A DNA stretch of 62,381 bases, taken from positions 1 through 62,381 of the forward strand of contig CAWEMM010000005.1 of NCBI GenBank assembly GCA_963810095.1, in the 5' to 3' direction. How positions within the stretch are numbered: position 1 is the first letter of the stretch; each line of letters opens with the position of its first letter. Shown here piece by piece: positions 15,491 through 47,611 of this stretch. This stretch comes from an uncultured Chloroflexia bacterium. GTDB lineage: Bacteria > Chloroflexota > Anaerolineae > CG2-30-64-16. The notes below the pieces were generated by a model that worked only from the letters and a program-made list of their open reading frames with translations, searched no databases and was not told the DNA's origin. The position numbers and the translations under genes were made by a program.

Positions 15491-16242
15491 GGGGTGTCAG
15501 TCCTCGGCAAGCGCAACGCGCTGAGCAGTAGATGGGCGAGCTTGCAGCGGACGCCAAACGCCAGCAAGCACGGCCCTAGTGGTGAGCACGGGCATCGGCG
15601 CCTCGGGTGAGAGTGCCACCCACCGCCCCGATTATAGACGATCAGCGAGGCGCGGCGCAAAACCCGGCCGACATGCAAGGAAGGAGATGACGAATTTTGT
15701 TGCCAGCACGTAGTGACCTGCGGGCGACACCCGACGCCCCAGATCTGGCTCGCTCTGCTTCGGCAGGCAGCACGCTCGGCCGAAGCGGGCCGAGTAGCGG
15801 TCTTGCGGCCACCCCGCACCTGGACCGCGCATGCGCAATCCGGGGTTAGCGGCATCTGCCCATGATGATCTCAGAGCGATAGCTACCGGGAATAGGGCGG
15901 AGGGTGCACGCCAAGCGTTGCGTCTCACAGGATCGCTCAGGGGGCCTACTGCCGCATTTGGCGACAATCGGCCTTGCTTGCGTGAATCCCGATAATCCTC
16001 GGATTATCGCACTCGGCGCAGAATGACGGCGAAAACCGGCTGAGGAAGCTCATGGCAAAGCCATCGGAGGAATGCGAGGGGAAGGCAGCAAACGAGCCGT
16101 GTGGTCTCATCAAGCCCGTTTTTCAATCCACAGACCTCACGGCTGTCAAAAAGCCTATCCCTGCGGTCTTACAATGCTCCAGATTCATCTTCGCCGAGAC
16201 CACAAGGCTGCCAGTGTCGCGTAGCCGTGTGGTCTGTCTAGA

Positions 16243-16288
16243 AAATGAAAAGACCACAAGGGTGGTCGCTTCACCTACCCTTGTGGTC
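16243..16288 (-). terminator. Rho-independent terminator after the tRNA fragment
   Basis: Minus strand GACCACAAGGGT-13 nt-ACCCTTGTGGTC followed by TTTTCATTT; identical copy at 47325-47370. Confidence 0.7.
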
Positions 16289-16310
16289 GCGCCCCTGGGA
16301 GGGGCGTTAG

Positions 16311-16354
16311 TCGGGGAGAGAGGATTTGAACCTCCGACCTCACGGACCCGAACC
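16311..16354 (-). tRNA. 3' half of tRNA-Pro(CGG), att core; not a complete tRNA
   Basis: GG-TTCGGGT-CCGTG-AGGTC-GGAGG-TTCAAAT-CCTCT-CTCCCCG-A, then CTA; no D-arm or 5' acceptor strand upstream. Confidence 0.85.
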
Positions 16355-16499
16355 ACAAACCTCGATTTTCGACCTCCGACCACACGGCGAGGCGATTTTG
16401 GGTAGCCGTGTGCTCTCCGGTCCCGAAACCCCCTGGTGGTCTCTGGTCGCTCTCTGCAGGTTCGCACCGAGCGGAATATTGAATTCCGGTAACGAGAGG

Positions 16500-16528
16500 A
16501 TTATAGCAGATGCTCGCTGGCTGATCAA
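16500..16528 (-). promoter_or_regulatory. Near-consensus sigma70 promoter firing into the tRNA fragment
   Basis: TTGATC-N17-TATAAT with extended TG; copy 2 reads TTGATT-N17-TATAAT (47610-47582). Confidence 0.75.
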
Positions 16529-16944
16529 GGTGTAACTGCAAACGTGCAAACGCGAGAGGCCGAGGAAGTGCCAGCGACGCAGACCAAGAAAGCTTGCCAT
16601 GGGAAGTACAGATGGTTAGTTGAGCCTCTGAAGTGCACTGCCAAATGGTCAAGCAGGTTGGGTGATGTTGCCTGGAACCACACCCAGGCAGATGGGCGCT
16701 TGGTGGTTGCCGTCACGATCGTCGTTTTGCCAAGAGCATCAGACCAGCCGAGCTAGGGCACCCAGGGGACTAGAACGTTCTGCGCTGCTTAATGGGACCA
16801 ACTGGATGACCCCAAAGCGCGCGCCACAATAGGGAGTTGCACTTCCAATCGAACTTCCTGATTCGCACCTGGCCTCACCAAACCAAGATACTCATCGGCC
16901 CGTTGTTCCGCTGCAATAGGCCAATAGATCTCGCGACTAGGCCC

Positions 16945-17394
16945 TTAAAAAGGTAGTCGCTCGAATCCAGCCTCTTCGGCCCCTCGAGAACGGTTTTCGC
17001 CGGGCGCGTCAAGTATCGGGCGCATCGCTGCGCTGGCCAACAGCCAACGTCCGCTCTGCTTGACCCAGACCAGCGTCGTGCGGAGCTCCATCTCCATACC
17101 CTGACCCTCGTAATTCACCTTCTGCCGCTCACGGTTCATGACGACCGCCGCGTCCCCGTACGCGCGCACGTTTGAGTCATCCCACTCGAGATACTCGTAC
17201 TTGAGGCTGGCCGACGTGAACCGCTGCGGCCACTGCTCCTTGGTGAGCATGAAGCCGCGCGGGCCGACGGCTACGAAATCGTCGGTCAGCGTGCGCTCCA
17301 TATACGCCGTATCACCCTGCCGCTCCGCCGCGGCGAAGTCTTCGGCGATTCGTGCGAGATCCTCTTGGATACGAGTCACATCTGCTCGACTCAT
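16945..17394 (-). CDS. NTF2-like / DUF4440 family protein
   Basis: AERQGD...LTDDFVAVGPRG.MLTKEQW...VRAYGDAAVV...TLVWVKQSGRW. Confidence 0.8.
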   Translation of the reverse strand: MSRADVTRIQEDLARIAEDFAAAERQGDTAYMERTLTDDFVAVGPRGFMLTKEQWPQRFTSASLKYEYLEWDDSNVRAYGDAAVVMNRERQKVNYEGQGMEMELRTTLVWVKQSGRWLLASAAMRPILDAPGENRSRGAEEAGFERLPF

Positions 17395-44916: not shown

Positions 44917-44943
44917 GGCTGAGAATCGGCAGAGGAGAAAAGT

Positions 44944-45756
44944 ATGGAGACGGTACGGTCGGCGGACGGGACGACGATCGCATATGACCGGATGGGACGG
45001 GGCCCTGCGCTTGTCCTGGTAAACGGTGCGAGCGCCACGCGGGCGGATGCGAAGTCCGTCGCCGCAGCCCTGGCGCCCCGTTTCACGGTGTACGCGTACG
45101 ACCGGCGCGGCCGCGGCGACAGCGGCGACACCCAGCCGTACGCGGCCGAACGCGAGGTCGAAGACCTCGACGCGGTGATCGACCAGGCGGGCGGCTCGGC
45201 CTTCGTATTCGGCCATTCATCAGGCGCGGTGCTGGCGCTCGAGGCCGCGCGGCTCCTGCCCGGCAAGGTCAGCAAGTTGGCCCTGTACGAGCCGCCGTTC
45301 ATCATCGACAACAGCCGGCCTCCGACGCCCGAGGACTTCGTCCAGCGACTGAACGGGCTGGTGGCGGAGGGGCGCAGAGAGGAAGCAGCCGAGCTTTGGA
45401 ACAGGAACATAGGCCTTCCGGAGGAAATGATCGCCGGAATGCGGCAATCGCCGTATTGGCCGAGATTGGTCGCCTTGGCGCACACGTTGCCGTACGACGC
45501 CACGATCGTTGGCGACACCGAGTCCGGCAGCCCACTGCCGCTGCGAAAGTGGTCTTCCGTGAGCACGCCGACCCTGGTGATTGACGGCACGCTGTTTCTC
45601 GGTCGGGAGGTGGGACACGAATGGATGCACCACGCGGCGGACGAGATCGGTCGCGTGCTACCAAATGCCCAGCGCCAGACGCTTGAAGGTCAGGACCACG
45701 GACCTGCCGATGATGTCCTCGTCCCGGCGCTCGTAGCGTTTTTCCTCAACGGTTAA
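44944..45756 (+). CDS. Alpha/beta hydrolase
   Basis: SADGTTIAY, YDRRGRGDS, GHSSGA, YEPP, GQDH. Confidence 0.9.
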   Translation: METVRSADGTTIAYDRMGRGPALVLVNGASATRADAKSVAAALAPRFTVYAYDRRGRGDSGDTQPYAAEREVEDLDAVIDQAGGSAFVFGHSSGAVLALEAARLLPGKVSKLALYEPPFIIDNSRPPTPEDFVQRLNGLVAEGRREEAAELWNRNIGLPEEMIAGMRQSPYWPRLVALAHTLPYDATIVGDTESGSPLPLRKWSSVSTPTLVIDGTLFLGREVGHEWMHHAADEIGRVLPNAQRQTLEGQDHGPADDVLVPALVAFFLNG

Positions 45757-46355
45757 CCGGGCCCGGCCCGGGTCGAAGTTGCCGTGATCGAGCGCTGATG
45801 ACAACCGGTAAGCCTCCACACTTCCAGGACTACGATCCGGCCGCTACTTCCATCTACGCGTACGCAGTCGCCGGTCTTCAAACGCGTCGTCGCCTGTTGC
45901 ACGCCCACCACCGCGGGAATGTCGAACTCGCGCGCCACGCCAGACCCGTGCGTGATGAGCCCGCCAATCTCCATCACCGGGCCGGCTGCGGTCAGAAACA
46001 ACGGCGTCCAGCCCGGATCAGTCGATGGACACACAAGGATCTCCCCGGGATCCAGGTGAGCACTGCGTGGATCGAGGATTACCCTTACTCGCCCTTCGCT
46101 CGTGCCCGGCGAGACCGCCTCGCCCTTCAGCTCGCCTTCACTCAGTCCGGTCTCGAGCAATCCTTCATAGTAAGCTTCACCTGTGCTCAGGAGCACGTTC
46201 GGCATCTGCCGGCGCTTGGCTTCGCGCTCATATCCCAGCCGGTTCGTCACAACGATTTGCTTCAAGGCTACCTGCTCACCCTCGGCAAGCTGCCAGAGAA
46301 TCTGCAGTGGTACGAAGAAGATGTCTTGGGCGTTTTCCCGCTGCCCGTACGCCAC
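45753..46355 (-). pseudogene. C-terminal phosphohistidine-swivel fragment of a second rifampin-phosphotransferase-like dikinase
   Basis: DIFF, GEILVCPSTDPGWTPLF, GGLITHGSGVAREFDIPAV. Confidence 0.7.
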
Positions 46356-46483
46356 GAGACGAGACGCGCAGTCGCGGCCGTCCGCTCTCCAACGCTATCG
46401 GGGTACGCCCCGCCAGTGCAGGATCGCGCGCCGTAAAGTACCAGTCGCGTCAAGACAGGGGGCGAAATCCCCCAGCAAGTCGG

Positions 46484-46654
46484 TCAACCGCAGGCCCACG
46501 ATGCCGCCGCGATGTCCTTAACGTCGCTTATGTGAAGTCGCGATCGGCTGACCTCAACATTGAGCAGCTTGTCCGCAGAGATGCCCACCTCCTCGGCGAG
46601 TTCCTTTCGCGTGAGCCTGACGGCGAGGCGCGCGGCTCGAATCCGGCCGCACAT
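46484..46654 (-). CDS. Small XRE-type helix-turn-helix protein or remnant (absent from the ORF track)
   Basis: MCGRIRAARLAVRLTRKELAEEVGISADKLLNVE. Confidence 0.5.
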   Translation of the reverse strand: MCGRIRAARLAVRLTRKELAEEVGISADKLLNVEVSRSRLHISDVKDIAAASWACG

Positions 46655-47041
46655 GGCAGCGTCAGCGGTATCCCTCGGCAGATCCTCCCCTTCTCTTCTT
46701 TGCCGATAACCCTTCCTGATGGCCAGGGTCGCGGCCGAGGCTCAGGCGCCGGCTTGAGAACGCGCTGGCGCACATTGCGGCACCCAGGATCGCCAGCTGG
46801 CCGGCCGGTGCACGACTGCATCGGCGCGATCCAGATCTAGGAGCGAGGTCAGCCGGGCCTCAAGCCGCCGCTCCGGCACGTCATACCGGTTCGACGCGTC
46901 CACCACGGCGGCGACCTTGACCGCCCCGTAGGCTTGCGCAGCGTCAGGCAGCGCCGCATCGGCGTCGGCCTTGACCGAGCCAAGCTCCCCGCAATACGTT
47001 TCGGCCCATCGGACTGCTTCGCGGGGACGCCTCCTCATCTA

Positions 47042-47611
47042 GCGATAATTGGTCTTCGGTGCGTGAATTCCGATAATCAGCGGGTCATCGCACTTGATGC
47101 AAAATCATGGCGAGAACCGAGCGGAGAAGCCCATGAGTAAGCCACCAGACTAATGCGAGCGGAAGGCAGCGAACGAGCCATGTGGTCTCATCAAGCCGGT
47201 TTTCCCATCCACAGACCTCACGGCTGGCGAAACGCTTATCCTTGCGGTCTTACGATGCTGCAGATTCATCTTCGCTGAGACCACAAGGCTGCCAAAGTCG
47301 ACGAGCCGCGTGGTCAATGCCCTTAAATGAAAAGACCACAAGGGTGGTCGCTTCACCTACCCTTGTGGTCGCGCCCCTGGGAGGGGCGTTAGTCGGGGAG
47401 AGAGGATTTGAACCTCCGACCTCACGGACCCGAACCACAAACCTCGATTTTCGACCTCCGACCACACGGCCAGGCGATTTTGGGTAGCCGTGTGGTCTTC
47501 GGCTCTCAAAACCACTGGTGGTCGACGGTCGCCCTCTGCGGGTCCGCACAGAACGGAATATTGAATTCCGGTAACGAGGAGATTATAGCAGAGGGTGGTT
47601 CGCTAATCAAG
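47042..47611. repeat. ~570-bp direct repeat, copy 2
   Basis: Homologous to 15961-16529, including boxes, terminator, tRNA half and promoter. Confidence 0.92.
47393..47436 (-). tRNA. 3' half of tRNA-Pro(CGG), second copy; not a complete tRNA
   Basis: Identical to 16311-16354. Confidence 0.85.

Follow-up and report, generated by a model that had tools for sequence, protein, structure and literature searches.

Integrase-less modules joined at tRNA-Pro(CGG) half junctions: a probable stretch of a tandem genomic-island array in an Anaerolineales genome

The DNA analysed here is an entire contig of 62,381 bp (C5, hereafter the window) from a 6.13-Mb, 16-contig metagenome-assembled genome (MAG) of the Anaerolineales (G000; completeness 88.5%, contamination 4.8%). 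It contains two long direct repeats, each built around the 3′ half of tRNA-Pro(CGG), which separate blocks of unrelated cargo. We consider it likely that the window is a stretch of a tandem genomic-island array, made by repeated integration at the anticodon-loop site of tRNA-Pro(CGG). The arrangement is a known one, that of tandem accretion and cis-mobilizable elements (CIMEs); it is mechanistically ordinary and does not represent a new class of mobile element. Less ordinary are three of its details: a conserved promoter-like element in one of the arms, arm repeats that resemble the core, and the targeting of both tRNA-Pro(CGG) and tRNA-Val(CAC). The comparison set comprised 37 genomes of the family, i.e. 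G000 and 36 others, with seven genomes other than G000 from the same genus.

An earlier note on this DNA had described two direct repeats of ∼570 bp, about 31.08 kb apart, with an identical core of 146 bp, and both the repeats and the core were recovered. BLASTN aligned 15952–16529 with 47033–47611 over 580 bp at 85.5% identity (E = 0). A repeat search returned 16243–16529 with 47325–47611 (91%) and 15909–16208 with 46990–47289 (78%), with a spacing of 31082/31081 bp. A script check showed that 16243–16388 and 47325–47470 are exactly identical over 146 bp; outside this core the flanks of the two junctions, J1 and J2, differ by 9–22%. The pair stands as described, except that it starts at 15952 and not at 15961. 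Homology on both sides of the tRNA half, which had also been claimed, is seen in the 580-bp alignment, which spans both arms. In the orientation of the tRNA (the minus strand of the window), each junction reads P arm – tRNA half (O) – P′ arm, with the following parts.

15952–16309, minus strand: P′ arm of J1 (‘armB’), belonging to module 1; ∼360 nt, directly downstream of the tRNA half in tRNA orientation
16310–16354, minus strand: core O of J1, the last 45 nt of tRNA-Pro(CGG), i.e. anticodon loop, 3′ anticodon stem, variable loop, T arm and 3′ acceptor strand
16355–16529, minus strand: P arm of J1 (‘armA’), belonging to module 2; ∼175 nt
16378–16388 / 16406–16416: P-arm inverted repeat, GACCACACGGC / GCCGTGTGCTC
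47033–47391, minus strand: P′ arm of J2, belonging to module 2; the first ∼235 nt beside the tRNA half are 89% identical to the J1 P′ arm
47392–47436, minus strand: core O of J2, the tRNA-Pro(CGG) 3′ half
47437–47611, minus strand: P arm of J2, belonging to module 3; promoter-like TTGATT-17-TG-TATAAT and the same inverted repeat as J1

The segments 16310–16354 and 47392–47436 are identical, on the minus strand, to the last 45 nt of the intact tRNA-Pro(CGG) gene, which lies off the window's contig at C6:27890–27965. Identity to the intact tRNA breaks off 2 nt 5′ of the anticodon loop, where TGTGG-TTCGGGT-CCGTG stands in the junctions and CACGG-TTCGGGT-CCGTG in the gene. ARAGORN found no full tRNA in the window, in agreement with the claim that the core holds only the 3′ half and that neither copy is complete. 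A block of identity that ends at the anticodon loop and a displaced 3′ tRNA fragment in the same orientation as the gene are marks of an island integrated in a tRNA gene, and both are present here; on C6 the distance from the intact gene to the fragment is 3.1 kb. A 49-nt core string occurs in exactly three copies in the genome (two on C5 and one on C6), and the intact gene is a fourth, with 5 mismatches.

When an attP site recombines with attB in a tRNA gene, the tRNA is regenerated and the earlier tRNA 3′ half is displaced outward. The attP of an incoming circular element would consist of a P arm, the tRNA 3′ half and a P′ arm. Where two related elements adjoin, their seam would then read P(new) – tRNA half – P′(old), and would therefore look like attP. 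That both repeats are attP-like junctions between successive elements with conserved ends, as had been proposed, is borne out by the P–O–P′ order and by the occurrence of the arms on unrelated cargo. The three blocks were also said to be unrelated in content, and the only protein similarity between modules is one LuxR helix-turn-helix (HTH) pair with 39% identity over 66 aa. In the seven other genomes of the genus, the cargo of modules 2 and 3 gave only scattered matches of ≤1.8 kb. Modules 1–3, which have both kinds of arm and no recombinase, are CIME-like units.

The absence of a recognisable recombinase from the window was upheld. A Pfam scan of 114 open reading frames (ORFs) of the window found none with a recombinase family and none with a transposase, relaxase or replication family. 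In module 2, which accounts for about 60 of the 114 scanned ORFs, there was no recombinase, relaxase, type IV secretion system or replication family. The genome has 14 six-frame matches to PF00589, none of which is on C5, and no match to PF00239 anywhere. The check with hidden Markov models for tyrosine and serine recombinases that had been suggested thus leaves module 2 empty and places all 14 PF00589 matches elsewhere in the genome. When 14 integrase fragments were compared with C5 by tblastn, the best E value was 0.05, and no integrase remnant was found in the modules. These statements on the window concern 62 kb out of a 6.1-Mb MAG.

The same arms recur on C6, a contig of 1.9 Mb, with different cargo. 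In tRNA orientation the order there is intact tRNA – P′ arm – AbiEi/AbiEii – P arm – tRNA half – a different P′ arm – tyrosine recombinase. The first P′ arm is 71–72% identical to that of the window (BLAST) and is followed by ∼0.9 kb without a called gene before AbiEi; the P arm is 91–94% identical to the window's; and the second P′ arm is made of TCACGG-type repeats. The AbiE mini-island is therefore complete, at 3.1 kb, without an integrase and with the same two ends as the window modules, and stands in tandem with an integrase-bearing island whose integrase-proximal 12 kb encode AAA_25, a HerA/TrwB-like ATPase, a DNA methylase, HigB/HTH and DUF3150. Further copies of the repeat, an intact tRNA-Pro(CGG) and a nearby integrase had been named as things to look for. 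A third tRNA half is on C6, the arms are present in six of the 36 other genomes and in two metagenome contigs, and the intact tRNA and the integrase are both on C6, the latter disrupted. A one-off duplication is excluded by the same arms with different cargo on C6, in the same-genus genome G007 and in the metagenome contigs.

Arm homology that extends beyond the tRNA was found in 7/37 family genomes, G000 included. A DNA-pattern scan of GTDB representatives returned only four relatives, all of them already found, and a scan of metagenome contigs added the two contigs; taken together, the collections searched yielded nine P-arm/tRNA-Pro junctions. In G007, contig C114 has the order intact tRNA – P′ arm – LarA/LacI/aldo-keto-reductase genes, and contig C157 has a full P–O–P′ junction between unrelated metabolic genes; no integrase lies near the arms in either place. 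In G022, G035 and G030, which belong to other genera, a P arm is joined to the tRNA half. Four further P arms (G035:C15, G026:C75, G007:C65 and G000:C4) have the half of tRNA-Val(CAC) instead, joined to them at the anticodon loop, and the two tRNAs have CACGG-N7-CCGTGAGGTC in common. The P′ arms of C6 and G007:C114 are 83.5% identical, compared with 73.5–77.7% for the adjoining core genes, and their homology ends at the start of the cargo. On C4 (locus L064, 1–12750) the order is module-1-related cargo – P arm – tRNA-Val(CAC) 3′ half – P′ arm – frameshifted integrase. We noted that this C4 cargo is 76–84% identical to 10.4–15.5 kb of the window, and that it adjoins the P arm in C4 but the P′ arm in the window.

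The same-genus genome G002 has an unrelated 2.7-kb element at the corresponding tRNA-Pro(CGG) (locus L038, C3:13970–16726), with a direct repeat of 41 nt and a divergent integrase of its own. Because G002 carries a different element there, several element families use tRNA-Pro(CGG). An attempt to locate the far end of the G000 array by synteny with G002 was uninformative, the downstream flank of G002 having no counterpart in G000. As a candidate empty-site pair we considered the metagenome contig L054 and G003:C186, which agree at 100% identity over 298 bp, their divergence starting exactly at the anticodon loop. The pair is not clean, because the G003 contig ends 10 nt further on and because the shared hairpin also occurs in P′ arms. 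No circular form, unambiguous empty site or transfer gene was seen among the sequences searched, and no identical module was present in two genomes.

The C6 integrase (near C6:24337), a Xer-like tyrosine recombinase that follows the third tRNA half, reads in a single frame but is interrupted by an in-frame TAG at a position where its relatives have Trp. Its paralogue on C4 (11.8–12.8 kb) is 81–82% identical in DNA and has two frameshifts. Homologues of the C6 integrase (45–55% identity) immediately follow the tRNA half in G035:C32 and G030:C23, and in G004, G006, G014 and G015 they immediately follow an intact tRNA-Pro. The order P arm – tRNA half – P′ – integrase was seen at all four of the places examined that combine a displaced half with an integrase (C6, C4, G035:C32 and G030:C23). 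The G035 integrase (L045:9545–10510) is intact, with 322 aa and no extra arm-binding domain. It is XerA/XerD/XerC-like and its closest PDB relatives are XerC-like and XerA proteins, although it scores below every curated cut-off: 154 bits against 330 and 144 against 335 for the XerC/XerD equivalogs, and 48.3 bits against 265 (TIGR02249) and 37 against 435 for the integron-integrase models. In the family, this integrase gene lies immediately downstream of either tRNA-Pro(CGG) or a displaced half and has the orientation of the tRNA. From this adjacency and the architecture of the sites, we infer that the joints were most likely made by a Xer-like tyrosine integrase of ∼320 aa without an arm-binding domain. 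The islands on C5 have no integrase gene of their own, the only one being the disrupted gene of the neighbouring C6 island, and mobilisation of the integrase-less modules would have been in trans, or else in cis together with a neighbour.

The two arms differ in their anatomy. The J1 P arm contains a promoter-like TTGATC-17-TG-TATAAT at 16528–16500, directed toward the tRNA half, which is the sole promoter-like match in 15700–16900. Its columns are invariant in 9/9 aligned P arms; the DNA search pattern fixed 26 bases, and the columns that it specifies are invariant by construction, but the promoter-like columns lie outside it. A TG-extended −10 promoter-like element was present in all 13 P arms inspected, the four tRNA-Val ones by eye. 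Nearby is the 11-bp inverted repeat GACCACACGGC..GCCGTGTGGTC, which is nearly invariant, with an RNAalifold covariation term of 0.02 kcal/mol. Because it is almost invariant and lacks covariation, it looks like a protein-binding DNA site rather than an RNA helix. The P arm also has a CGGAAT..ATTCCG palindrome. Within G000, the P arms are 86–89% identical to one another.

The J1 P′ arm opens with a GC hairpin at 16290–16306, followed by a terminator-like hairpin, GACCACAAGGG/CCCTTGTGGTC, at 16252–16288 with a T-run. The GACCACAAGGG..CCCTTGTGGTC hairpin also follows the tRNA or tRNA half in G003 and in L054, where the flank beyond it is without the motifs. Past the hairpins, the P′ arm has further copies of a 13-bp motif, AGACCACACGGCT, in both orientations. 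With up to 2 mismatches allowed, this motif has 14 matches in the window, seven at each junction and none elsewhere, and clusters of at least three within 400 bp occur genome-wide only at J1, J2, the P′ arm at C6:27692–27875 and the P arm at C4:11271–11530. AGACCACACGGCT resembles the reverse complement of the tRNA's CCGTGAGGTC, which covers the 3′ anticodon stem and the variable loop. Because of this resemblance to the tRNA's own half-site, the arm copies are probably extra binding sites for the integrase. A reading of GACCACACGG as a genome-wide repetitive extragenic palindromic (REP) sequence was rejected, since there are only 27 exact copies in the genome and they cluster only at att regions.

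Several observations weigh against a tandem array built by this integrase. The intact tRNA and the integrase sit on a different contig. A genome-wide search with the core string found no fourth tRNA half that would mark the far end of the array. As assembled, the two candidate integrase genes are both broken, and the proposal in the earlier note that the modules are mobilised in trans is for this reason not supported in G000. No P end of an integrase-bearing island was found, none being present within 52 kb in G035:C32, so that adjacency is the only link between the integrase and the P arms. The arm-bearing genomes G007 and G022 (∼560 contigs each) yielded no close homologue of the integrase. 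None of the listed Logan contigs described below spans the identical core, so that the module order depends on the MAG assembly. Finally, a pure att-site reading leaves the conserved promoter-like element of the P arm unexplained.

Comparison of contig ends showed a single overlap, at 99% identity, between C3 and C6 (C3:11419–13456 and C6:1–1937), so that C3 extends C6 leftward; the ends of C5 share nothing with those of C3 or C6. Together C3 and C6 reach 36 kb past the integrase without a further tRNA half. A 1.5-kb paralogous copy of the overlap (77–78%) is also present at C3:9358–11390. Reads that cover the window were sought in public runs. Four runs from one freshwater-sediment study contain 17–39% of the sampled words of 14500–18500, and their Logan contigs, at depths of 2–5, were compared over 10000–24000, with at least 335 further pieces beyond those listed. 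Short contigs match 15935–16339 with 0–1 mismatches at a depth of 2.7–5.4. The listed pieces are compatible with the assembly; they neither refute nor bridge the junctions. In two of the runs (X1 and X2), contigs connect 22251 to 23169/23170 with 2–3 differing letters at the joint, omitting 917–918 bp within the gene for a UvrA-like ABC ATPase, which could be a deletion variant or cross-mapping from a paralogue.

The ORFs of C5 are shorter than those of the core genome, with medians of 130–315 aa per module against ∼280–350 aa in most core blocks, and coding cover is 0.84–0.85 against ∼0.9 in core contigs. Genes split into adjacent ORFs lie at 3443–5125, 12688–15490, 33560–36126 and 59867–61318, and their products are a Pyr_redox_2/rhodanese reductase, a MalT-like regulator, a phosphoenolpyruvate (PEP)-utilising/rifamycin-phosphotransferase-like enzyme and an S8 peptidase. 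The short ORFs and split genes fit a decay of genes restricted to the islands rather than assembly-wide errors. Because both integrases are broken and many genes are split, the array in G000 is probably frozen and decaying; G035 retains an intact integrase.

Three other explanations of the junctions were weighed. The most serious is that armA and armB bound dedicated, still-propagating, non-autonomous cassettes that never carried an integrase and that parasitise resident Xer-like tRNA integrases on a large-cassette, integron-like platform, in essence the earlier note's own reading. The distribution of the P′ arms speaks for it: the armB class was seen five times (J1, J2, the C6 mini-island, G007:C114 and G007:C157), never beside an integrase, whereas the other class (P′x) was beside an integrase in 4/4 places examined. 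The integrase-less C6 module lies on the tRNA side of the integrase-bearing island, and the P arm – half – integrase order recurs in G035 and G030. The lack of any integrase remnant in the modules, the better conservation of the arms than of adjoining core genes and the presence of the TG-extended −10 element in all 13 P arms are also in its favour. Set against these points, only two modules are complete (31 kb and 3.1 kb), the nine P-arm/tRNA-Pro junctions are few for all the collections searched, and there is no circle, no empty/occupied pair free of ambiguity and no module identical across two genomes. Many module genes are broken, as are both nearby integrases, and none of the features of an integron is present. 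We regard such propagating cassettes as quite improbable. A version in which armA/armB mark a self-standing lineage of integrase-less mega-cassettes, each with a complete attP of ∼530 bp that is maintained by selection, and inserting via the Xer-like integrase of a resident island, seems unlikely, though a little less so. This attP would comprise a conserved outward promoter, a palindromic site and seven core-like repeats, and would target tRNA-Pro(CGG) or tRNA-Val(CAC) through their common half-site CCGTGAGGTC. If it were true, tRNA loci would be open-ended accretion platforms for multi-gene cargo of 3–30 kb.

That C5 is an artefact of assembly or binning, a chimera of strain variants joined via the tRNA-half repeat in which the modules are alternative occupants of one site, is very unlikely. 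The source is a MAG in 16 contigs, with the completeness and contamination given above; the last 4.4 kb of C5 are the only region with <50% GC, which suggests at least one chimeric join; the ends of C3 and C6 overlap at 99%; and the listed short-contig pieces end inside the identical core. However, the flanks of J1 and J2 differ by 9–22% outside the 146-bp core, so that read-pair distance offered the assembler sequence by which to tell them apart. In three runs, contigs fit the armB-to-tRNA-half part of J1 with 0–1 mismatches, at a depth (2.7–5.4) similar to that of neighbouring listed pieces. In addition, G007:C157 of the same genus independently has a two-arm junction, and a bounded two-site arrangement is present on the 1.9-Mb C6. 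The junctions might also be thought to encode a small RNA, with a promoter, a leader of ∼140 nt, the tRNA 3′ half and a terminator kept for their RNA product. The promoter-like TTGATC-17-TG-TATAAT and the terminator-like hairpin do frame a minus-strand unit of ∼240 nt, the promoter-like columns are invariant in 9/9 P arms, and ARAGORN reads the G022 copy as a tRNA-like gene of 71 nt. Yet Rfam gave no match at E up to 1 in 15700–16800, the main helix is the nearly invariant 11-bp inverted repeat with its negligible covariation, and the same P arm also occurs with the half of another tRNA, tRNA-Val(CAC), the joint lying exactly at the anticodon loop, as recombination predicts. An RNA gene is thus barely credible. 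Repeated integration of islands at tRNA-Pro(CGG) is the reading that we prefer.

Tandem islands that include integrase-less members have been described in several systems. Pavlovic 2004 and Bellanger 2011 are reportedly the primary papers on the ICESt1/ICESt3–CIME case. A review, in its account of Streptococcus thermophilus, describes tandem accretion involving ICEs (integrative and conjugative elements) or IMEs (integrative mobilizable elements) together with CIMEs (PMC5704250). As described in that account, CIMEs resemble the modules studied here in keeping attL/attR-type sites, in lacking integration and transfer genes and in having hybrid att seams; they also adjoin, in a tandem at a target gene's 3′ end, an element that bears an integrase, and this neighbour's integrase is the proposed route of cis-mobilisation (PMC5704250). 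The present case differs from the streptococcal CIMEs in its Anaerolineales (Chloroflexota) host, its small Xer-like recombinase and its series of at least three integrase-less modules, with no integrase remnants found and no conjugation module identified in the window. Module 2 and the C6 AbiE island have P and P′ arm ends that look functional from their sequence, and no integration or transfer genes. Among the sequences searched there was no ancestral autonomous form with armB P′ arms and no integrase remnant; the split genes, which point to decay, were many.

In the same phylum, the account of the ssrA islands of Dehalococcoides given by McMurdie et al. (2011; PMC3146451) includes tandem arrays and 15 islands without an integration module that are possible CIMEs. 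Those islands are likewise in tandem downstream of one small-RNA gene, with direct repeats of its 3′ end and strain-specific cargo; they differ, as far as that account goes, in using the transfer-messenger RNA gene (ssrA), a 20-bp T-loop repeat and a CcrB-like serine recombinase, DsiB (PMC3146451). In G000, by comparison, there are a 45-nt identity block reaching to the anticodon loop, conserved arms of ∼500 bp and no PF00239 match in the genome. A further parallel is offered by pdif sites, which are short XerC/XerD sites on plasmids. The pdif modules of Acinetobacter plasmids, in the descriptions that we drew on (PMC6449649, PMC7399989, PMC13141974), are likewise recombinase-less cargo units that carry conserved recombination sites at either end and are shuffled by a Xer-type tyrosine recombinase whose gene lies elsewhere. 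The G000 modules differ in their tRNA-half direct repeats, their arms of ∼170 nt and 360 nt, an apparently chromosomal location and a dedicated island integrase in place of the housekeeping XerC/D.

The Islander paper counts 125 tandems of at least two islands and four of at least three among 3919 islands, with anticodon-loop sites as the commonest class (PMC4383910). Its islands share with ours a regenerated tDNA, a displaced 3′ fragment at the ends and a crossover centred on the anticodon loop (PMC4383910). By the rule given there each tandem member must have its own integrase (PMC4383910), and the window modules would fail it. The analogy with integrons in the earlier note does not hold, as every defining integron feature is missing. 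The likeness to integron cassettes extends only to the general idea of recombinase-less units between recombination sites. There is no IntI, no attI/Pc platform and no attC site, and the modules are of 3–31 kb, multi-gene, on both strands and with their own regulators, joined at 580-bp tRNA-half junctions. This element family is not represented in the tandem-island literature that was compared, a comparison that did not include a search aimed at Anaerolineales islands.

The modules themselves, together with a tail of low GC content at the right end of the window, are delimited as follows; the boundaries are unstranded.

1–15951: module 1; its left end is off the contig
16530–47032: module 2, 30.5 kb, the sole module of the window that is bounded on both sides
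47612–58020: module 3, with an undefined right end
58021–62381: low-GC tail, 40–51% GC, the only <50% GC region in the 6.1-Mb genome

Module 1 encodes MalT/LuxR-type regulators, two CoA-disulfide-reductase-like Pyr_redox+rhodanese proteins, ADH, rhodanese and nitroreductase/Fer4 proteins, with several of the genes split. Module 2 has roughly 39–45 crude ORF calls on both strands. They include DUF4440, glyoxalases, alpha/beta hydrolases, the UvrA-like ABC ATPase, PadR, TetR, globin, the split PEP-utilising/rifamycin-phosphotransferase-like gene, RibD_C, a BBE FAD oxidase and DUF1579 proteins. Module 3 carries a DUF3368/UPF0175 pair, LuxR-type response regulators, two AI-2E family transporters and a GH94 glycan phosphorylase. 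The tail encodes DUF1254/DUF1214, the split S8 peptidase with a Por_Secre_tail domain (type IX secretion system sorting) and sortilin-like repeats; the fall in GC is abrupt and lies right upstream of the GH94 gene. Judged from its composition and genes, the tail is probably outside the array, as a chimeric join or contig end, or as foreign, Bacteroidota-like DNA.

Within module 2 there is a 353-bp direct repeat (81%) at 17666–18018 and 20666–21018, exactly 3000 bp apart. A TrmO_N fragment overlaps this repeat, and between its copies lie genes for glyoxalase, alpha/beta-hydrolase and glycolipid-binding proteins; a nested duplication or an insertion may account for it. A 33-bp near-perfect palindrome (97%) lies at 23535–23567, downstream of the UvrA-like gene. 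Beside the P′ arm of the module, the ORF at 46550–47035 is probably frameshifted. Its relatives, of an unknown family, are at C15:64896–65525 (the very end of that contig), at C6:11147–11392 in the integrase-bearing island, and on two other contigs, C8 and C1. Another junction may therefore adjoin the end of C15. The idea that the P′-proximal ORF is a conserved excisionase-like gene was rejected, since no homology links the ORFs at this position in modules 1 and 2, on the C6 island and in G007.

The window shows accessory DNA stacked at a single tRNA gene in the Anaerolineales, with at least 58 kb in three integrase-less blocks. Island finders that demand one integrase per island, as in the rule stated in the Islander paper (PMC4383910), would miss or mis-merge such arrays. 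As a compact system, the element family would allow the study of a Xer-like integrase without an arm-binding domain, which apparently uses core-like arm repeats and two tRNA targets with a common anticodon stem. The Anaerolineales are abundant, uncultured Chloroflexota of sediments and wastewater whose mobile elements have scarcely been described.

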